64,000 bases of DNA, taken from positions 7,711 through 71,710 of the forward strand of contig JALHPE010000001.1 of assembly GCA_022842645.1 (NCBI GenBank). The letters are read 5' to 3'. A program made the position numbers and the translations under genes. Shown here piece by piece: positions 3,578 to 16,274 of this stretch. Under the pieces are notes generated by a model. That model was not told the origin of the DNA. It made no database searches and worked only from the letters and a program-made list of their open reading frames with translations. Every line of letters starts with the position of its first letter. Positions within the stretch are counted from its first letter, which is position 1. Source of the DNA: Minisyncoccota bacterium (GTDB lineage: Bacteria > Patescibacteriota > Minisyncoccia > Phycocordibacterales > UBA2100).

Positions 3578-3604
3578 GTTATTTTGAGGAGAGGGAGAGA
3601 TTCG
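3578..3604. repeat. Direct duplicate of the 3' end of tRNA-Ser(CGA), copy at 3751-3777; inverted partial copy at 3695-3712
   Basis: ttattttgaGGAGAGGGAGAGATTCG here versus ttatttttgcGGAGAGGGAGAGATTCG at the true tRNA 3' end. The intervening 145 nt carry perfect hairpins (aattcttgtg..cacaagaatt and gcccaacacatgtgttgggc). Confidence 0.5.
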
Positions 3605-3759
3605 GTCACAAATAATTCTTGTGCCGACGCACAAGAATTTCCGCGACCCCGACTCGGCGACCCGCGTGCTCGCGGGTACCCCGCCTCCGTCTTTCGAATC
3701 TCCCCCTCTTCCTGCAAAAATATAGTCGCCCAACACATGTGTTGGGCTCGTTATTTTTG

Positions 3760-3844
3760 CGGAGAGGGAGAGATTCGAACTCTCGAGGCCTTGCGACCTG
3801 GCGGTTTTCGAAACCGCTCGTTTCAACCACTCACGCACCTCTCC
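3760..3844 (-). tRNA. tRNA-Ser (anticodon CGA), type II with long variable arm
   Basis: Folded by hand: acceptor GGAGAGG/CCTCTCC, D-stem CGT/ACG, anticodon stem GCGGT/ACCGC with loop TTCGAAA, variable arm AGGTC-GCAA-GGCCT, T-arm GAGAG-TTCGAAT-CTCTC, discriminator G. Confidence 0.85.
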
Positions 3845-4093: not shown

Positions 4094-4165
4094 GGCCTCA
4101 TCGTCTAACGGCTAGGACAGCGCCTTTTCAAGGCGTTAATCGGGGTTCGATTCCCCGTGAGGTCA
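4094..4165 (+). tRNA. tRNA-Glu (anticodon TTC)
   Basis: Acceptor GGCCTCA/TGAGGTC, anticodon stem GCGCC/GGCGT with loop TTTTCAA, T-arm CGGGG-TTCGATT-CCCCG, 72 nt. Confidence 0.85.
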
Positions 4166-5870
4166 AAGACAGAGATTTATCAACCTTGAATTGTTCAGAA
4201 AGCCTGAAAATAGGCTGTAATTTTGGTGTTCCATTAAGGATTTCGTGGTAGGTTGGTGTTTTCTCAAAAAACAACGACATTAAAGCCCTTCGAGACTGTA
4301 AATCATCAGCCTTTTCGAGTATTTCAGCAGGGTGTTCCATTACGCGCTTTGCGTAACGAATAAAGCCCTTGATTCCTTTTTCGTTTACCTCAATCGTGCC
4401 ACGCTTACTCTCCGCATCTTTGATCTGTACGTCGAGCGCTTCAATCTCTCTTTCAAGCATCTTTCTCGTAATGATGCTTTCTGCAACTTCAAACGCTTTT
4501 AGTTTCTGGGCTTGCTCTGCCTTAAGTTCGCTTACACTCCTGCTGATTGCCGATGACATTTCAACAATGTCTTTCTCTTTCGAGCGATATTTGCGTACCA
4601 ACTTCTCTTCAAGTTTCTCCAAAAAACCCTTTTCAAAGCGAAGATTATCAATGTAGTTTTTAACACACTTCTCAAGATCTGCTTTTCTAACTCTGAATCC
4701 AGAGTGTGCTCGCTTTCCGTTTTTCACTCCTCCACAATGATACGCGGGAAAATGCTTACCTGACTTTCCGCGAGGTGCACTACCCAAAAGTTCCGAGGTG
4801 CAGAATGGGCAAGTAATCACTTTCCACGGATAGTCTGGATTGTTACGTAAACGTTTGGTTTTACCCCACGGAGAATAGTTATAAAGTACCTCCACGCTCC
4901 CATCCCCATGCTCCTTAACGAAAACTTTGCCGCGATTTGCTCGATTAAAAAGATCAACCGAAACCAGTCCATTGAATTCTCGTAGTCGTACTGGTTGATG
5001 CTTTGTCCACGACTCACAAACAATGCCTGCATATTCTGTTTGCGTAATACGTCTTTGTAATTGTTTAACAGTAAGTAATTTGCCGCCCTTCTTTCCAACT
5101 ACGGTCGGATGCTCTTTATTACTCCGATCCCAGCGTCGAGTCGTTAAGGTGCGATATCCCATTGCGTTTATGGTTTTAACAATCTCATTGTCATCAACGC
5201 CAGCCGCGCGCATCTCAAATATTTTTACCCAGTAATGTGATCGCTCTGGATCAGTCGCGCGAATCACACGGTCTTTTCCATCATAGAAAAATCGCTTATT
5301 AATCATTCCGTCTGGCGCACGACGAGTTGCCCATCCTTCTCTGGCATAGCGAATTTGTGCACCAATCATTCTCGTTAAAATCTGTCTTACTTCTTGCTCA
5401 CCATTATAGGCTGTTATCATTTCAGCCGATTCACTTGGGTAGTATTCACTCCACTTATATTTAACCCCAAGGTGTTCAAGTGTGTTACGTTCAGGCTGAA
5501 TTATTCCATATACGTCGCACATTTGAACACCTAATTCAGCAAGTTCGCGCTTCATCCTCTCGTAAACCACATAACCTGCCCTTGTTGCACGATCAATACA
5601 TTTGATAATGTATTTTTTAATGGGCTTATCAGTGTGTATTCGACTACGGATGTACATTTTTACTTCCTCAAAATCTTGTCTTTCTTTAGTGGTTCCGGAA
5701 TGCGGTTTCTTGAAAACCTCTGCAACGATCCAACCACTACGTTCGGCAAACTGTCTTCCAAGTTTTTCCTGATCATCCAAACTGTCGCCCTTAAGTTGGG
5801 AGGGGTCGCTTACACGGCAATCAATTACGCAGTATGTAGGTCTTTCAGTCATACTCCTACATTTTAACAA
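4128..5870 (-). CDS. Large serine recombinase (phage-type integrase)
   Basis: N-terminal resolvase catalytic domain (YCVIDCRVSDPSQ...DQ with the catalytic Ser, ...IDRATRAG), Cys-rich zinc-ribbon (CPFCTSELLG...HFPAYHCGG) and a C-terminal coiled-coil. The 3' end overlaps tRNA-Glu. Confidence 0.85.
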   Translation of the reverse strand: MLKCRSMTERPTYCVIDCRVSDPSQLKGDSLDDQEKLGRQFAERSGWIVAEVFKKPHSGTTKERQDFEEVKMYIRSRIHTDKPIKKYIIKCIDRATRAGYVVYERMKRELAELGVQMCDVYGIIQPERNTLEHLGVKYKWSEYYPSESAEMITAYNGEQEVRQILTRMIGAQIRYAREGWATRRAPDGMINKRFFYDGKDRVIRATDPERSHYWVKIFEMRAAGVDDNEIVKTINAMGYRTLTTRRWDRSNKEHPTVVGKKGGKLLTVKQLQRRITQTEYAGIVCESWTKHQPVRLREFNGLVSVDLFNRANRGKVFVKEHGDGSVEVLYNYSPWGKTKRLRNNPDYPWKVITCPFCTSELLGSAPRGKSGKHFPAYHCGGVKNGKRAHSGFRVRKADLEKCVKNYIDNLRFEKGFLEKLEEKLVRKYRSKEKDIVEMSSAISRSVSELKAEQAQKLKAFEVAESIITRKMLEREIEALDVQIKDAESKRGTIEVNEKGIKGFIRYAKRVMEHPAEILEKADDLQSRRALMSLFFEKTPTYHEILNGTPKLQPIFRLSEQFKVDKSLSLTSRGIEPRLTP

Positions 5871-6113
5871 CTTTTCTTCTTGTAGAAACTATATTCTTCT
5901 CACGAATCCACATATCTAACAGCGTATCTGCAAGATGATCTAACAATATATCCACATTAACATTTAAGTTGTTATCTGACGGATTAGATTTTGTAGCGGT
6001 CAACTGTTGGAGGAAGTTATCTTGACCCGAACTCATAAAGTTCAGGTTCGTGTGTTATGACTCGTTGCGCAAACGAATGTACAAGTTTCTAAAATTCAGT
6101 AAAAAATAAAAGT

Positions 6114-6169
6114 CGGCTATATAGCCGGATAATTTTTTTACGTTTTTTATGAAATCGGCTATATAGCCG
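6114..6169. repeat. Two copies of the perfect 14-bp palindrome cggctatatagccg (6114-6127 and 6156-6169), each followed by a T-run
   Basis: Read directly. They lie in the integrase upstream region of the element. Either tandem terminators or operator sites. Confidence 0.5.
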
Positions 6170-6484
6170 ACTTTTAACTTATCCCCAACATATGGACTTA
6201 TTCATGACAACACAAAGCGGAACCTTAACCGTCAAGAGTTGTTGTGTTGAGCGTACGAAGCAAGTAAACTGTCTACGTTCGCCCTCAAAGCGAACATTTC
6301 AAAACAAAGACCTAAACCCTCGCTTCGGCGGTGGCATGGTCTAAAAGTCGGATGGAGCGTAGGAACCCCGTCATGTGGTTGCTTCATCCGCCGTATCGGG
6401 AAACCGGTGCGTTCGCGTAAGCGAAGACCCGTGGCGGGTTTTGTGTTTTCTAAAATTCCGCCTTTACAAGAAAAGTGAACACAT

Positions 6485-6613
6485 ATGGACTACGATGATC
6501 TGACAAACGAAGTGGAAGAACTTAAAGCGCAAATCTATAAACTGCGTAGTGAATTAAACTTCTTTGCCACATGTTTTGGATTTGTAGTGCTTATGATCCT
6601 GATATGGAAATAA
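6485..6613 (+). CDS. Small hypothetical protein (43 aa) with a C-terminal transmembrane helix
   Basis: ATG..TAA ORF (MDYDDLTNEVEELKAQIYKLRSELNFFATCFGFVVLMILIWK) below the ORF-track cutoff and inside the mobile element. No homology support. Confidence 0.25.
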   Translation: MDYDDLTNEVEELKAQIYKLRSELNFFATCFGFVVLMILIWK

Positions 6614-6623
6614 CTAAACTCCT

Positions 6624-6866
6624 ATGCAATATCTAACCCTCACAATACTCGCAGTCGCTTTCTTTGCAGGGCAAGCGTTTTTAACTCTCACTCTCCAACA
6701 AAAAGAAAGTAACGAGGAGTTTGCAAAACACGTTCAAGAAAAGATCTTTGATGATTGTTTCGACTACTACGCGGCAACCTCACGAGAAAGAGGTATTGAT
6801 AAAACCACAATTCAGACATGCGTAGACAAGACGAGCGATTGGATGAAGTCTATAAACAATCTGTAA
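6624..6866 (+). CDS. Hypothetical small secreted protein (80 aa, N-terminal signal-like helix)
   Basis: ORF-track ORF; hydrophobic N-terminus LTLTILAVAFFAGQAF. Confidence 0.4.
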   Translation: MQYLTLTILAVAFFAGQAFLTLTLQQKESNEEFAKHVQEKIFDDCFDYYAATSRERGIDKTTIQTCVDKTSDWMKSINNL

Positions 6867-6889
6867 ATTTATTCCGCGCGGAATGAGAA

Positions 6890-7276
6890 TTAAGCAAACT
6901 CGGCTTTATCCTCCTCGGCAGGTTCCAACATTTTTGACTGCAACATATCAAGCCGCTCCTGTGCGAGAGTGAGTTCAAACCCTCGCGCATTCCTCCCAAA
7001 TTCGTCTGGACAGCGTTTTTCCAAGTATCGCATGGCAAGATGCGGGTCTCGCTCTAAATTGTCTACAACGGTCTTTTTTGCCTTTAAAATGGGGTTCAGT
7101 TTCCACCTCGCTTTTTGCTCCACAAAGTCTGGGGTTGCCGTCTGATAGTTATACAGCGTTTGTGGTGCAATTTTGGCTGAATTACAGGCTTCTTCGTCTG
7201 TTGCCCCTATCTGAAAAGCGTCTTCGAGTTTTTGGAGTACGCGAGGAGTGATTTTTTTGGGTCTGCCGAGTGTCAT
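6890..7276 (-). CDS. Phage-like HTH DNA-binding protein (terminase-small-subunit-like N-terminus)
   Basis: N-terminus MTLGRPKKITPRVLQKLEDAFQIGATDEEAC resembles the GRPxKYTPE HTH of phage TerS/Nu1-like proteins. Acidic C-terminus. Confidence 0.4.
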   Translation of the reverse strand: MTLGRPKKITPRVLQKLEDAFQIGATDEEACNSAKIAPQTLYNYQTATPDFVEQKARWKLNPILKAKKTVVDNLERDPHLAMRYLEKRCPDEFGRNARGFELTLAQERLDMLQSKMLEPAEEDKAEFA

Positions 7277-7311
7277 ATCACTATTTTACCGGAAATAAAC
7301 ACGCTGATACA

Positions 7312-8598
7312 ATGCTGTCCAATCTACCCACCATGTCTGGATTCCTGAAAACACGAGAAGTCTTTGAAGAAACGTATCGCGTTGACGATTTGTTGGATTT
7401 TTCGAGTGAAATCAATCGTCTTGATTCGGTAATTCAGCAAGCACCTTACTCGGCGTTGGTTGGATACGTGGGACGTTTTGGCTCTGGAAAGAGCACGGCT
7501 ATTTACCAATTGCGTAAACAGTATGAGCAAGCAAAAAAATCTAAGTGGTTTGAGTTTGATGCATGGAAATATCCCGAACGTCGTGATCTGTGGGAGGGCT
7601 TTGTACTCGATATCGCAGATCAAATGGGGAGCAGAAAGAGAGTGAAGAAGCAGATTGACGGCGATACGAAAACATCGAAAACAGTTGGTGCGATCTCTGA
7701 AATCGCACAAGGGCTTGCCGCTTTCACTGGTCTTTCCTACCTCGTCAGCAAATTTGCACACCTATTCGATAAACAACCCATTGAGCGCGTTTTTGAGTTG
7801 CAAGAGATCCTTGTTGCGATGTTCGGCGCAGTAAAAGAAAAAGACATTTTCATTGTGGTCGAGGATATAGATCGATCAGGTGATGCGGGGCAATATTTCC
7901 TGGAAACACTGCGGCAATTTATTAAGAATAACCTCGCTGAAAAGCGCATCGTTATTCTCGTGCCTATCGGCTCAGAAATTTACGACAAAGAAGACGATCT
8001 TCACGACTCCTTGCAAAAAGTACTCGATTACCAGGTGCATTTTGAACCTCGGTCGGTGAAATACTCAAAGTTCCTGGATTATTTTGATGAAAGTACGTTT
8101 CCTGCAACTCACACCGTGCAAGCGAACGTGCAGGATAAATCTCTTTGGCGAGAGCATATTGAAGACTGGTTTGCTCTTGCGGCTCGTAATGGTCTAAACA
8201 TACGAAAGATTAAATCCGCTGTTCGTGAAGCAAACGCCGCCTTTATTGATCTCCGAGCAAAAGAATTTAAACCCGATCCTCGAATTGTACTCGCAATCAC
8301 TCTGCTTAATTATGTTTACACAGAAGGAAAGAAACGATGGGTAACGCGACTTGAAACCAAGCATGATATTACGAGTAATTGTCCTATTTATAATTATCTG
8401 CAAGTTGTCGCGCGTAACCAGCGACTGTCAGAATACCCAGGGCACTGGAGACCAGGAGCAACGCATTTTGTTGAGGATCGAGAGTTAATCCTTCCGGCGT
8501 ATGTGACTGATTCTAGAGCGCCGAACGGAGAGCCGACAGGAAGATTTTGGCTCTCGGATTTTTACTTAATTCCCTTTGGTAGAAATACCCAAGGATAG
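7312..8598 (+). CDS. KAP-family P-loop NTPase
   Basis: Walker A GRFGSGKST followed by the KAP-diagnostic FEFDAWKYPERRDLWEGF, and Walker B IVVEDIDR. The ORF track starts at a GTG at 7270, overlapping the upstream gene; the ATG at 7312 is preferred. Confidence 0.75.
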   Translation: MLSNLPTMSGFLKTREVFEETYRVDDLLDFSSEINRLDSVIQQAPYSALVGYVGRFGSGKSTAIYQLRKQYEQAKKSKWFEFDAWKYPERRDLWEGFVLDIADQMGSRKRVKKQIDGDTKTSKTVGAISEIAQGLAAFTGLSYLVSKFAHLFDKQPIERVFELQEILVAMFGAVKEKDIFIVVEDIDRSGDAGQYFLETLRQFIKNNLAEKRIVILVPIGSEIYDKEDDLHDSLQKVLDYQVHFEPRSVKYSKFLDYFDESTFPATHTVQANVQDKSLWREHIEDWFALAARNGLNIRKIKSAVREANAAFIDLRAKEFKPDPRIVLAITLLNYVYTEGKKRWVTRLETKHDITSNCPIYNYLQVVARNQRLSEYPGHWRPGATHFVEDRELILPAYVTDSRAPNGEPTGRFWLSDFYLIPFGRNTQG

Positions 8599-8794
8599 TA
8601 GATAATATAGTTCGATAGATCATTGGGTACATAAAATTCAGTGCTTCTATTGCTCAAATACCTTGTTTTATGTGACAAATTCAGTACCCGATGATCCAAT
8701 ACGTACAAGGCTAAATACCTGATTCCAGTGCAAAACAGTATTTTCTATAGTGTTCCAGTCAAAGTACAATGGGCTCAAATCGAACGAAGTGAGG

Positions 8795-8811
8795 TTTGAC
8801 CTCACGGGGAA
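8795..8811. repeat. Inverted exact 17-nt copy of the tRNA-Glu 3' end, within hairpin gtgaggtttgacctcac
   Basis: tttgacctcacggggaa is the reverse complement of ttccccgtgaggtcaaa at 4151-4167. Candidate distal boundary of the integrated element. Confidence 0.5.
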
Positions 8812-8846
8812 GAAAGGGGTCGGGAAAACATTCTGTTTTCCCGTGG
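8812..8846. repeat. Hairpin motif GAAAGGGGTCGGGAAAAC-N4-GTTTTCCCGTG (second copy at 23754-23786)
   Basis: Near-identical 33-35 nt hairpins at two unrelated loci. Confidence 0.5.
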
Positions 8847-8865
8847 AGGAAGGATTGGGAAAACC

Positions 8866-9645
8866 GTGGGTTTCCCAGAACCCCGTTGTGGTCAAAATTC
8901 ATGCCGATGCCTTAACGCCTGGTACAATGTCTCCATGCGAGAAAAGATACAAGTACCGTCGTCTGCTGAATCCTCCGAAGTCACGGTACCGCTGGCAGAG
9001 GACAAGATTCTTCACCGACTTCACCAATGCACAAACCCCGGCGCAAATTGCTCGCCCGAAGATGAGGAAGAACTACAGAAAGACCTTGAACGCTGTGAGG
9101 TTTTCGAGATGTACAATGCCTATATCGAGAGTCGTGTACCAACCCTCCCTCTCTTGGGGAAGAACATCACTGACTTAATCGAAAGAATCCCCAATAAACT
9201 ACGCAATGACCCAGAAACAATTTCTATTGTTAATTATTTGAAGGGGCGACACGCGTCGATTGGTCACGATCTCCGAGCTTATGTTACGCTTGTTATTAGA
9301 TTTGTAACGCTTGAGCAATCAACTCTGAGATTCAGAGATTATGAAAAATACATCGATCAAATAAAAAAAGTTGACGCTGATCGCCGAAGAATGCACGACA
9401 ACCTCTTAGCTTCCTTGGATATGCTCCGCCAAAAAATGGAAGAGGTGTATGATTTGGGATTGTGCGAGAAGAATGATTTTTATGTTTGGTCGCCAGGTGA
9501 GACACGTGAGATTCCCATAAACGCAGTGCCGGTTTTCGCCTCCACAGCAATTGCGAATCGAGACCTTATTAAAAATTGGGCGCTTGCCGCGGACTTTGCA
9601 GAACATTTTGAGAAACTATCGCAACTGCTGGCAGAAAAAAAATAG
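8866..9645 (+). CDS. Hypothetical protein (259 aa); alternative start at 8935 (MREKIQ...)
   Basis: Long ORF with no recognisable motif; followed by a hairpin terminator. Confidence 0.45.
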   Translation: MGFPEPRCGQNSCRCLNAWYNVSMREKIQVPSSAESSEVTVPLAEDKILHRLHQCTNPGANCSPEDEEELQKDLERCEVFEMYNAYIESRVPTLPLLGKNITDLIERIPNKLRNDPETISIVNYLKGRHASIGHDLRAYVTLVIRFVTLEQSTLRFRDYEKYIDQIKKVDADRRRMHDNLLASLDMLRQKMEEVYDLGLCEKNDFYVWSPGETREIPINAVPVFASTAIANRDLIKNWALAADFAEHFEKLSQLLAEKK

Positions 9646-9668
9646 GCATCCTGTGGTTACAGGACGCC
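9645..9668. terminator. Hairpin ggcatcctgt-ggtt-acaggacgcc between convergent genes
   Basis: Stem-loop directly after the stop of the 8866-9645 ORF, preceded by an A-run. Confidence 0.45.
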
Positions 9669-9955
9669 TACTGATTGGCTCGATTTGCCTCTGCTTTTAC
9701 GACAATACAGTAGCAGAGCTTGAGAGCAAACGCCGCATACGCAAGATCGTCATCAGGTAGTGCCAGCGCACTGCGGTGTGATCGCAAAAGATCATAGAGA
9801 TCCTTGCAACGAACATCCGTCCGAACTATTTCTGCTTGCTCATGAGGGTTGTATCCATGCAAAGCTTCACAAGAAGGCAAAACAAGACTGAGAATGTGCG
9901 TTGCTTCTTGCGGATGCGTTTGTGTAAATTTTTTCCAACGACGGAGCTGGCTCAT
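9668..9955 (-). CDS. Hypothetical protein (95 aa)
   Basis: ORF only. Confidence 0.3.
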   Translation of the reverse strand: MSQLRRWKKFTQTHPQEATHILSLVLPSCEALHGYNPHEQAEIVRTDVRCKDLYDLLRSHRSALALPDDDLAYAAFALKLCYCIVVKAEANRANQ

Positions 9956-14048: not shown

Positions 14049-16274
14049 ATGTCAAAAGACGGCTCAAAACCTAGCCACATTCGCAATGACGCGGGTATTC
14101 CCGAGGCGTTTCTTAAACCCTACAACCCCGCCGAAGAGGAGTTGAAGACGCGGGCGCTATGGGATGAAAGTGGCTACGCTAACCCCGACAAAATGATCGC
14201 AGACGGACTTACCGCCCCCGATGCGGAACCGTACTCCATCGTCCTTCCCCCACCGAATGTGACGGGGACGCTCCACATGGGACACGCCGCGATGCTCGCG
14301 ATTGAAGACATCCTCATTCGCTACGCGCGCATGAATGGAAAAAAGACGCTCTGGATTCCTGGCACTGACAGCGCGGCTATTGCCACACAAGCGAAAGTGG
14401 AAACCGATATTTATAAAAAAGAAAAGCAGACGCGGTATGACCTCGGCCGTGAAGAACTCATGAAGCGTATCGATGAGTTTACTGAGGAGAGTAAGGCGAC
14501 CATTATCAATCAAGTGCGGACGATGGGAGCAAGTCTCGACTGGAGCCGCTACGCTTACACGCTCGACGAGACGCGCTACAAGGCGGTGATGGAGGCTTTT
14601 GTGCGCATGTATGATGCAGGGCTCATCTACCGCGGAAATCGCATCGTGAACTGGGATCCAAAATTGCAGACGACCGTTTCGGACGACGAGATCGAATATC
14701 TGGAACAAAAAGATCCCTTTTACTATTTCAAGTATGGCCCGTTTGTCATCGGCACCGTACGCCCAGAAACAAAATTTGGCGATAAGTATGTGGTAATGCA
14801 TCCGAACGACGAGCGGTATGCTGGGTACAAGCACGGACAAACAATTGATCTTGAGTGGATAAATGGACCCATCACGGCAACCGTAATCAAAGACGAAGCT
14901 GCGAACATGGACGTTGGCTCTGGTGTCATGACGATCACCCCAGCCCACTCGGGTGTGGACTTTGAGATTGCACAAAGACATGGGCTGGATATCGAACAAG
15001 TGATCGATGAACGCGGTATCCTCCTCCCCATCGCGGGAGAGTTTGCCGGACAACACATCAAGAAAGCCCGCTCTCTTATCGTGGAAAAGCTCACCGCAAA
15101 AGGACTTGTTGAGAAAATCGATGAGAATTATGTGCACAATGTCGCCACCAATAGCCGTGGCGGCGGCCTGATTGAACCCCAGATAAAAAAGCAGTGGTTT
15201 GTGGCAGTGAATAAAGAATTCACCATCTCCCACTCTGAAATGAGCGGCATCCCTACCGGAACGATGACGACGCTCAAGAAGCTTATGCGCCACGTGGTTG
15301 AGACGCAGCAAGTAAAAATAGCACCCGAGAGATTCGAGAAAATCTACTACCACTGGATAGACAACCTCCGTGACTGGAATATCTCGCGGCAAATATGGTT
15401 TGGACATCGTATTCCTGTGTGGTATCGAAGCGACGAGGTCTATTGCGGCACCGAGGCGCCTGGGGGCGATGGATGGGAGCAGGATCCGGATGTGCTCGAC
15501 ACCTGGTTCTCGTCGGGCATATGGACTATTTCTACGCTCGGCTGGCCGGAAGAAACTGCTGACCTGAAGACTTTCCACCCGACCGCGGTACTCGAGACCG
15601 GCTACGACATTCTCTTTTTCTGGGTAGCACGCATGGTCTTGATGTCGGGCTTCTTGGTGGGACAAGTACCCTTCAAGCAGGTATACCTGCACGGGCTTGT
15701 GCGCGATGGACAGGGGCGCAAGATGTCGAAATCCCTCGGGAATATCATTGACCCACTCGACATGATTTCAAAATACGGGGCGGATGCGACGCGACTCTCC
15801 CTCATCATTGGTGCCGCGCCGGGGATGGATATCAAACTCTCGGAAGATCGTGTACGCGGCTACAAACACTTTGCGAATAAACTCTGGAACATCACACGTT
15901 TCGTGCTTGAAAGCACGCACGATATAGATGTGGATGCGAAACTCTCTGAAACTGACGCGAAACTCGTTACTGAAGCGCACGAATTGGTGAAAAACGCCTC
16001 GAAAAACATTGATGCATTCCGCCTCGACCTTGCAGCTGATGAGATTTACCACTTTGTGTGGGATAGGTTTGCCGCTGAGATCATCGAGGAGTCAAAGCCG
16101 ATACTCAAAGAACCTGGAGAGGCTCGGGCTTCACGACAGCGTATGCTGCATAAGATTCTCATCATTTCTCTTAAAGCACTCCACCCGTTTATGCCTTACG
16201 TCACAGAAGCTGTTTGGCAAAAGCTGCCCCAGAAAGATGCGGAGCTCCTTATGGTTGCAAAGTGGCCTAAGTAG
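14049..16274 (+). CDS. valS: Valine--tRNA ligase (compact form lacking the C-terminal coiled-coil)
   Basis: Class I motifs PPPNVTGTLHMGHA (HIGH) and KMSKSLGN. WNISRQIWFGHRIPVWY matches the ValRS WCISRQ..WGHRIP motif rather than IleRS or LeuRS. Confidence 0.9.
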   Translation: MSKDGSKPSHIRNDAGIPEAFLKPYNPAEEELKTRALWDESGYANPDKMIADGLTAPDAEPYSIVLPPPNVTGTLHMGHAAMLAIEDILIRYARMNGKKTLWIPGTDSAAIATQAKVETDIYKKEKQTRYDLGREELMKRIDEFTEESKATIINQVRTMGASLDWSRYAYTLDETRYKAVMEAFVRMYDAGLIYRGNRIVNWDPKLQTTVSDDEIEYLEQKDPFYYFKYGPFVIGTVRPETKFGDKYVVMHPNDERYAGYKHGQTIDLEWINGPITATVIKDEAANMDVGSGVMTITPAHSGVDFEIAQRHGLDIEQVIDERGILLPIAGEFAGQHIKKARSLIVEKLTAKGLVEKIDENYVHNVATNSRGGGLIEPQIKKQWFVAVNKEFTISHSEMSGIPTGTMTTLKKLMRHVVETQQVKIAPERFEKIYYHWIDNLRDWNISRQIWFGHRIPVWYRSDEVYCGTEAPGGDGWEQDPDVLDTWFSSGIWTISTLGWPEETADLKTFHPTAVLETGYDILFFWVARMVLMSGFLVGQVPFKQVYLHGLVRDGQGRKMSKSLGNIIDPLDMISKYGADATRLSLIIGAAPGMDIKLSEDRVRGYKHFANKLWNITRFVLESTHDIDVDAKLSETDAKLVTEAHELVKNASKNIDAFRLDLAADEIYHFVWDRFAAEIIEESKPILKEPGEARASRQRMLHKILIISLKALHPFMPYVTEAVWQKLPQKDAELLMVAKWPK

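Follow-up and report, generated by a model that had tools for sequence, protein, structure and literature searches.

The 64,000-nucleotide stretch of DNA analysed here (the window; positions 7,711 to 71,710 of contig JALHPE010000001.1, assembly GCA_022842645.1, from a Minisyncoccota bacterium) contains a tRNA-Glu gene whose 3' end is overlapped, on the opposite strand, by the end of a serine integrase gene. A 17-nt sequence from the end of this tRNA, TTCCCCGTGAGGTCAAA, is found once more in the window, inverted, beyond a stretch of low GC content. An earlier note on this DNA, made from the sequence alone, read the stretch as an integrated element and the inverted copy as its likely far boundary. 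Where does the element end? Why does an integrase gene run into a tRNA gene? And, if the inverted copy is not an attachment site, what is it? We consider it highly probable that a 4.6-kb element (~4168-8779, 4612 bp) was inserted at the very 3' terminus of tRNA-Glu through ordinary large serine recombinase (LSR) recombination. The recombination mechanism is canonical. What is new is a family of serine integrases that target tRNA termini and truncate their own gene, the association of this family with LOOT RNA, and a structured module attached to the tRNA.

Ends of the element

Much of the earlier description held up. The tRNA-Glu(ttc) gene was identified by ARAGORN and by Rfam (tRNA model, 60.4 bits), and the open reading frame (ORF) of the recombinase, 4128..5870 on the minus strand, runs antisense over the final 38 nt of the tRNA. 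The length of 580 aa given for its product holds from a TTG start; gene callers prefer the ATG at 5852, which gives 574 aa. The AT-rich segment was recovered as a run of windowed GC content, with 42.6% GC over 4168-8779 compared with 51.0% in the remaining window, and the lowest-GC stretch of equal size outside it has 48.0%. The proposal of a small, lower-GC integrative element with a large serine recombinase at tRNA-Glu is supported. The right end is not fixed by composition alone, because GC content stays intermediate to ~9.9 kb (46.6% over 8780-9955).

The far end was located by comparison with related loci. In ~30 of these a common signature is present, which in window orientation reads ...TTTCCAAG-GTGTTCCATT-CTAGGTACAATG-GGC-TCAC|AA, and its final 5-9 nt agree with the 3' terminus of whichever tRNA is the target there. 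Such cores are, for example, GCGGACAA at tRNA-Lys, GCCCGCA at tRNA-Trp, ACACCAA and GGCGCAC at two tRNA-Arg genes, and GTCCAC at tRNA-Ala. In the window, the motif GTGTTCCAGTC of this conserved arm (the P arm) is at 8750-8760, and the junction, at 8775-8779, precedes the inverted 17-mer by 16 nt; here the short core TCAAA of the tRNA terminus is present in direct orientation. Pairs of closely related elements show how sharp this boundary is. Loci L032 and L037 are near-identical, with rare mismatches, over 400 nt up to ...GAGCTCAC and are unrelated from there on, and L027 and L049 have the same abrupt divergence at the core.

The joined form of the site is found in a circular relative. The integrase P0044 is encoded on two 6137-nt contigs (L097 and L098) from different samples, each with a 30-nt terminal overlap, which, once rotated, are one and the same 6107-bp circle without a mismatch. 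The attP of the circle, TTTCTATGGTGTTCCATTTTAGGTACAATGGGC-TCACCA-TTTGGGATTTATTTAC, is patterned as the left arm of the window attR followed by the right arm of attL. When the circle was scanned, the tRNA and the trailer module described below were both absent.

In the arrangement that we propose for the window, attL consists of the tRNA and, next to it, the right arm of attP, which also codes for the end of the integrase, and attR consists of the family-conserved left arm of attP and the host DNA beyond it, with the TCAAA core in direct orientation at both junctions. The predicted attB of the element is ...CCCCGTGAGGTCAAA|TCGAACGAAGTGAGGTTTGACC... and the predicted attP is ...GTACAATGGGCTCAAA|GACAGAGATTTATC.... 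Nearly all of tRNA-Glu is host DNA, and the earlier wording of a classic reconstituted att site is therefore inaccurate.

Could the inverted 17-mer nevertheless be the distal att boundary, turned around by a secondary rearrangement or produced by non-canonical recombination, as had been suggested? It is exact, unique and near the end of the low-GC stretch. However, the conserved P arm and core stop 16 nt before it, the paired elements diverge exactly at the core, and the attP of the circular relative is without such a copy. In addition, independent loci have the same layout of an inverted and then a direct copy, made in each case of the tRNA sequence of that locus, and tRNAs without a recombinase are among them. 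We regard this explanation as very improbable. The ends of the element are ordinary direct repeats of TCAAA, for which neither an inversion nor an unusual mechanism is needed.

At one tRNA-Arg (L055) there are three attR-like copies of the P arm, at distances of ~3.5, ~5.5 and ~6.2 kb from the start of the LSR gene, each with the tail-coding frame intact. This suggests tandem elements, or their remnants, at one tRNA.

The integrase, its exchanged tail and its targets

The product of the integrase gene has an N-terminal part matching PF00239 (Resolvase) above the cut-off (E = 5.7e-6), and the cut-off of PF07508 (Recombinase) is passed as well. In a 23-sequence alignment the catalytic-domain residues R13 and S15 and the zinc ribbon residues C348, C351, H372 and C373 are invariant. 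An AlphaFold2 (AF2) model of the relative P0044, with a mean predicted local distance difference test score (pLDDT) of 85.8, has long helices at 406-485, read as the coiled coil. In Foldseek this model matches the solved structures of the SPbeta integrase (9dxd, E = 2e-15) and the Bxb1 integrase (9iu2, E = 3e-12) over ~575 columns. From the Pfam and structural matches together, the enzyme is a bona fide large serine recombinase, as the earlier note had named it.

This enzyme belongs to a family with eight tRNA species as targets, each at its last bases. Among the candidates scored, 762 integrase relatives were found with E <= 1e-3, mostly in Parcubacteria/Patescibacteria genomes. Most of their C-termini read ...LVTLRGIEPRF or a variant of it, which is what a tRNA acceptor stem and T-arm encode when translated antisense. 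The family was surveyed in 79 genome loci, fetched with the family alignment. The 3' end of the recombinase gene overlaps a convergent tRNA in 64 of these, and several of the other 15 stop at a contig edge. The targets are tRNA-Glu (39 loci), tRNA-Lys (8), tRNA-Trp (6), tRNA-Arg (4), tRNA-Gln (4), and tRNA-Ala, tRNA-Tyr and tRNA-Asp (one locus each). Viral contigs contributed only two loci and were uninformative. In the literature, no report of serine integrases at tRNAs was found for candidate-phyla-radiation bacteria.

Why, then, does the reading frame enter the tRNA? The ORF does so because integration cut off the 3' end of the gene, and translation runs on, antisense to the tRNA, to the first stop. 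The conserved last 36 codons have been moved to the far end of the element, and 11 codons, TSRGIEPRLTP, are read antisense from the tRNA in their place. The integrated integrase of 574 aa ends in ...DKSLSL-TSRGIEPRLTP, and the reconstructed excised form of 598 aa ends in ...DKSLSL-SPLYFDWNTIENTVLHWNQVFSLVRIGSSGTEFVT, with its stop codon at 8668. When the DNA to the left of attR is attached to the int ORF at the core, the reading frame continues in ~20 loci and gives the conserved tail peptide ..(S)LEWNT[IL]E..V[LI].WN.VF... The differences between the tails of L012 and L015 are mostly synonymous, which indicates coding selection. Of the best 120 database homologues, 91 have the tRNA-type tail and at least 9 the attP-type tail; the circle-borne P0044 is of the attP type.

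From these reading frames, attP lies within the coding sequence of the integrase, and excision would restore the enzyme of 598 residues. An exact look-up of this 598-aa protein gave no match in the collection searched. The change of tail may affect the activity or the directionality of the integrase, and an attP within the reading frame suggests a simple route to self-limiting integration.

Recombinases that disrupt the gene encoding them are described in a review as known only from archaea, as tyrosine enzymes (PMC8371274). In the archaeal SSV-type 'suicidal' integrases the recombination site is also within the integrase gene, and integration alters the gene (PMC8371274). The SSV-type enzymes are tyrosine recombinases whose gene is split into inactive parts, whereas the window enzyme is a serine recombinase that exchanges only 36 of its 598 codons, those at the 3' end. 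The window family is a bacterial, serine-type and partial version of the self-disrupting arrangement, and an integrase reading frame that spans attP would be the bacterial counterpart of the archaeal one. Among bacteria, intP of the Myxococcus phage Mx8 is a case of a self-disrupting integrase.

The distances within the sites agree with those of other serine integrases. In the latter, a 9-bp motif for the zinc-ribbon domain is present at positions 16-24 of the attP half-site and is 5 bp nearer the centre in attB (PMC3783163). The 5-bp shift in the tRNA-integrating family fits this published rule. The last base of the T-loop motif of tRNA-Glu, GTTCGATTC at 4145-4153, is 14 nt from the end of the core, and that of GTGTTCCAGTC in attR is 19 nt from it. 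The distance from motif to core is exactly 5 bp shorter in the tRNA than in the P arm in 17 of 17 clean cases, the window included; six other distance values in the same comparison are mismatched motif matches and not the exact GTGTTCCATT consensus. On this geometry, the enzyme would read the T-loop GTTCGATTC as the outer, zinc-ribbon-domain motif of the left half-site of attB. In attP, GTGTTCCAKTC, 5 bp farther from the core, would be the corresponding outer motif, and TC, within the core (4163-4164), would serve as the central dinucleotide.

The T-loop is universal and the core-proximal bases of the P arm vary with the target, which we offer as an explanation for the use of many tRNAs by one family. 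Serine integrases are prized in genome engineering for their short sites, and how they acquire new targets is poorly understood. Here a family has spread naturally over at least 8 tRNA species, keeping the T-loop anchor and changing the core-proximal bases of the P arm, and so provides a comparative data set on specificity.

The motif GTGTTCCATT is also present twice inside the int coding sequence. One copy encodes NGTP on the opposite strand and the other, ~107 nt away, encodes MEHP in a different frame; the copy in the P arm (8750-8759) encodes EWNT in the third frame, and all three copies are on one strand. At the NGTP site the codons AAT, GGA and ACA were observed in 48/48, 48/48 and 44/48 loci, compared with backgrounds of 65%, 31% and 32% in the same genes. 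At the MEHP site GAA was observed in 41/41 (background 65%) and CAC in 40/41 (background 43%). The neighbouring proline codon is free to vary at both sites. Synonymous positions frozen across 41-48 loci at both in-gene copies indicate selection on the nucleic acid itself, and these copies are perhaps extra, putative binding sites for the integrase. To our knowledge, accessory sites of this kind have not been described for serine integrases. The copies were also considered as crossover sites and rejected: the region from copy to tRNA is under protein-coding selection, and reconstruction of the tail puts the crossover at the tRNA terminus.

Integrases of the attP form were also observed on a 4268-nt contig with a Terminase_2 gene, LOOT, two tRNAs and a 24-nt terminal overlap (L099), and on a 28-kb contig with TraG/TrwB-like and ArdC genes (L100). 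From these settings, the family serves several kinds of mobile element.

The inverted 17-mer and the tRNA-trailer module

Within 64 kb the 17-mer is found only at 4151-4167 on the plus strand and at 8795-8811 on the minus strand, which agrees with the single extra copy first reported. Is the match due to chance? The sequence is short, and nothing more speaks for this. Only ~0.02 matches are expected even when two mismatches are allowed, and the layout of which the 17-mer is part recurs in other loci; we give chance practically no weight. The hairpin noticed around the copy is present as well (GTGAGGT-ttg-ACCTCAC, 8789-8805). What the earlier note overlooked is a degenerate copy of the tRNA-Glu 3' end in direct orientation, 70 nt downstream of the inverted one, at ~8881-8899 (CCCCGTTGTGGTCAAAA; one indel, one mismatch). 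The two copies form a helix, P1, in which 8795-8809 is paired with 8881-8896, and which encloses hairpins at 8821-8843 and 8856-8877.

A second module of this kind follows tRNA-Ser(cga) in the window (inverted copy 3693-3709, direct copy 3582-3604), with no recombinase nearby, and the orthologous tRNA-Ser module in L092 differs from the window copy by compensatory changes. An inverted copy, ~70-110 nt and a direct copy, all derived from the local tRNA sequence, are also found after attR in L012 (twice), L015, L023, L031 and L006. Besides the tRNA-Ser modules of the window and L092, modules without a recombinase nearby are present at tRNA-Val in L006, L011 and L036. The 17-mer is part of the host DNA that followed the tRNA before integration, and not an attachment site. 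Before integration the inverted copy would have been located 16 nt past the tRNA, able to pair perfectly with its last 17 nt.

Serine integrases have pseudo-palindromic sites, and a 17-mer in this orientation would fit a mirrored arm. It might in that case be a left half-site, in a palindromic attP or attR, that mirrors the half-site derived from the tRNA. Against this, the 17-mer is on the B' side, from 16 nt (start) to 32 nt (end) past the end of the core, and at ~60 nt in L012, and many family members are without an inverted copy after attR. The true P arm has moreover been identified, it also codes for the integrase tail, and the circular attP contains no copy of the 17-mer. We find this explanation hardly credible and retain that of a host sequence outside the element.

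An alignment of nine module sequences gave a three-way-junction consensus with compensatory changes in 20 of 27 pairs, and a covariance model, R1, was built from it. A search of 1.43 Mb with R1 gave 14 good matches. Over 17 aligned module matches, 90% of cells are paired (slid controls: 35-42%), and both sides have changed in 22 of 27 pairs; these counts come from an alignment fitted to the model and are somewhat inflated. Conserved G-U pairs point to the tRNA-sense strand and to RNA as the likeliest form, and the module RNA is most likely transcribed with the tRNA or just after it. The module had no Rfam match even at E = 1. A hammerhead, or another known ribozyme or RNA, was considered and rejected, as there was no Rfam match and the junction strands are by eye unlike the hammerhead core. 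The module is thus a structured, tRNA-attached element in candidate-phyla-radiation bacteria that is not in Rfam.

Two tandem modules are present after attR in L012 (reverse-complement coordinates 15915-16060 and 16085-16270). A hairpin is inserted into the inverted copy of the second of these, and into that of L011, and splits it. Logan contigs assembled independently from the same organism have breaks inside both window modules (3606, 3645, 8793, 8862 and 8881) and are otherwise identical to the window.

Is the module a functional host RNA at all? It could instead be a miniature integrated element that is non-autonomous, or a scar left at the T-loop by an earlier integration. Direct repeats of 20-27 nt, from the T-loop to a few bases beyond the tRNA end, flank the insert, its presence among orthologous tRNAs is patchy, and the copies in L012 are in tandem. 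However, the compensatory changes between the window and L092, and across the Ser, Val and Glu copies, indicate selection on the fold, and no mechanism is known that would supply an inverted copy matched to the target. We consider this origin unlikely, while giving it real weight. The module also resembles the folded single-strand att sites of integrons (attC) and the CTX phage (attP), which likewise have two inverted copies ~70-110 nt apart in a branched hairpin. In those systems the hairpin contains the crossover and travels with the element, whereas the window module starts 16 nt past the core, is absent from the circle and occurs without a recombinase.

We put forward a combined proposal, of which we are rather less than half persuaded. 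The 17-mer would belong to a class of tRNA-trailer RNAs not described before, three-way junctions closed by a helix between two copies of the last 17-20 nt of the tRNA, one antisense and the other a second sense copy, and the tail exchange and the three frozen motifs would together be a built-in switch of the integrase. The antisense copy could pair instead with the 3' end of the tRNA itself. The module could then be a switch on tRNA maturation, or a miniature mobile element homing to tRNA ends. As for the integrase switch, the circular form alone would make a fully competent enzyme.

Besides the inflation of the covariation counts, several points weigh against our overall interpretation. Neither a close relative with an empty tRNA-Glu site nor an excised circle of the window element was found, and scans of metagenomes for the predicted attB junction and the generic attP pattern gave no matches. 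The empty site, for which the earlier note had advised a search among relatives, was sought through homologues of the 236-aa protein encoded downstream: the locus in L092 is rearranged, and the unoccupied tRNA-Glu in L093, the only one seen, is in too distant a genome. The core is only 5 nt and therefore weak alone, so that the boundary rests on the family-wide comparison. The assignment of half-sites is incomplete, because the right half-sites P' and B' are without a clear mirror of the left-arm motif. Finally, the attP-type tail is modelled by AF2 at pLDDT < 50, so its docking is not readable.

Related systems and other contents of the element

The coordinates of the features are collected in the table.

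Table. Features of the integrated element and its surroundings in the window
Feature	Position	Strand	Basis or remark
tRNA-Glu(ttc), target gene	4094..4165	+	ARAGORN, Rfam
attL core TCAAA, common to attR, crossover within	4163..4167	+	longest block shared by tRNA end and far-end signature; family comparison
attR, family-conserved P arm and core TCAAA (8775-8779); right end of element	8729..8779	+	family comparison
Large serine recombinase (int), integrated form (574 aa)	4128..5852	-	Pfam, homologues, AF2 model of a relative
Detached int 3' end, in frame after excision, encoding tail SPLYFDWNTIENTVLHWNQVFSLVRIGSSGTEFVT	8668..8774	-	reconstruction; tail conserved in ~20 loci and database proteins
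GTGTTCCATT copy 1 in int, encoding NGTP	4226..4235	+	
GTGTTCCATT copy 2 in int, encoding MEHP	~4332-4341		~107 nt from copy 1
Inverted 17-mer, 5' strand of helix P1, outside the element	8795..8811	+	sequence match, fold, covariance model
Three-way-junction module, host side of attR	8795..8901	+	fold z = -3.6; R1 37.5 bits, E = 4e-8; covariation
Second module, at tRNA-Ser(cga) (3759-3844), no recombinase nearby	3578..3712	-	z = -9.9; R1 101.6 bits
Conserved 59-aa ORF directly upstream of int	5857..6036	-	position; alignment with counterparts
Perfect 21-nt inverted repeat TAAAAGTCGGCTATATAGCCG, between small ORF and LOOT	6107-6127 / 6156-6176		each arm with its own palindrome
LOOT RNA (Rfam RF03000)	6309..6425	+	76.1 bits against gathering score 46.4; full-length model matched
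128-aa protein like small terminase subunit (helix-turn-helix)	6890..7276	-	phrog_4102, E = 6e-16
KAP-family P-loop NTPase (421 aa), cargo	7333..8598	+	Pfam PF07693; weak PADLOC PifA and PDC-S20 matches

The window family shares its domain order with large serine integrases such as those of A118/LI, Bxb1, phiC31 and SPbeta, and its fold matches SPbeta and Bxb1. It also shares with them a short identical core and the 5-bp shift of the attB motif. Unlike these enzymes, it targets the 3' terminus of tRNAs with the T-loop as attB motif, has attP inside the integrase ORF with two more motif copies frozen in the coding sequence, and is found in candidate-phyla-radiation bacteria on elements of 4-10 kb. 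The serine recombinase of phiRSM-type phages reportedly also uses the end of a tRNA gene, tRNA-Ser, as attB; it is said to be a small, resolvase-like enzyme of filamentous phage, not an LSR, and its gene is not split. With phage satellites (PICI/PICMI-like) the window element has in common its small size, an integrase and a protein like the small terminase subunit (TerS). A TerS-like gene is, however, present in only 4 of 25 related elements.

The LOOT RNA is a conserved companion of the recombinase family. By Rfam, 6 of the 7 integrated loci that were scanned have it, as do 2 of 3 contigs with attP-form integrases; by sequence profile it was found in 25 of 85 sources. For the hits with a mapped integrase, LOOT is single-copy and without exception on the element side, at a distance of 0.4-8.3 kb from int. 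Besides the window, it is present in L007, L009, L012, L015, L023, L031, L097 (the 6.1-kb circle) and L099. An orphan RNA is thereby given a genomic home.

From attL, the gene order of the element is int, the 59-aa ORF, the 21-nt inverted repeat, LOOT, two small ORFs, the TerS-like gene, the KAP NTPase gene and the detached tail. Related elements are 4.1-10.4 kb long and, besides int, have only the small ORF in common. For most of the listed loci, and for the circular forms, the counterpart of the 59-aa ORF can be aligned and has the motif ..LAe.lFdmW.. in common with the rest; the 59-aa product is a candidate cofactor or directionality factor. The 21-nt inverted repeat may be an operator or an origin.

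No population heterogeneity was seen: every Logan contig that carries at least one of three genes (integrase, ion channel, 236-aa protein) is colinear with the window. To the right of the element, the genes at 8935-9645 (plus strand, 236 aa) and 9668-9955 (minus strand, 95 aa) have a lowish GC content (~45-48%). This pair is probably host DNA, because it is kept in the relatives L092 and L093. In L092 the two genes are again found downstream of a module, with a 107-aa ORF between.

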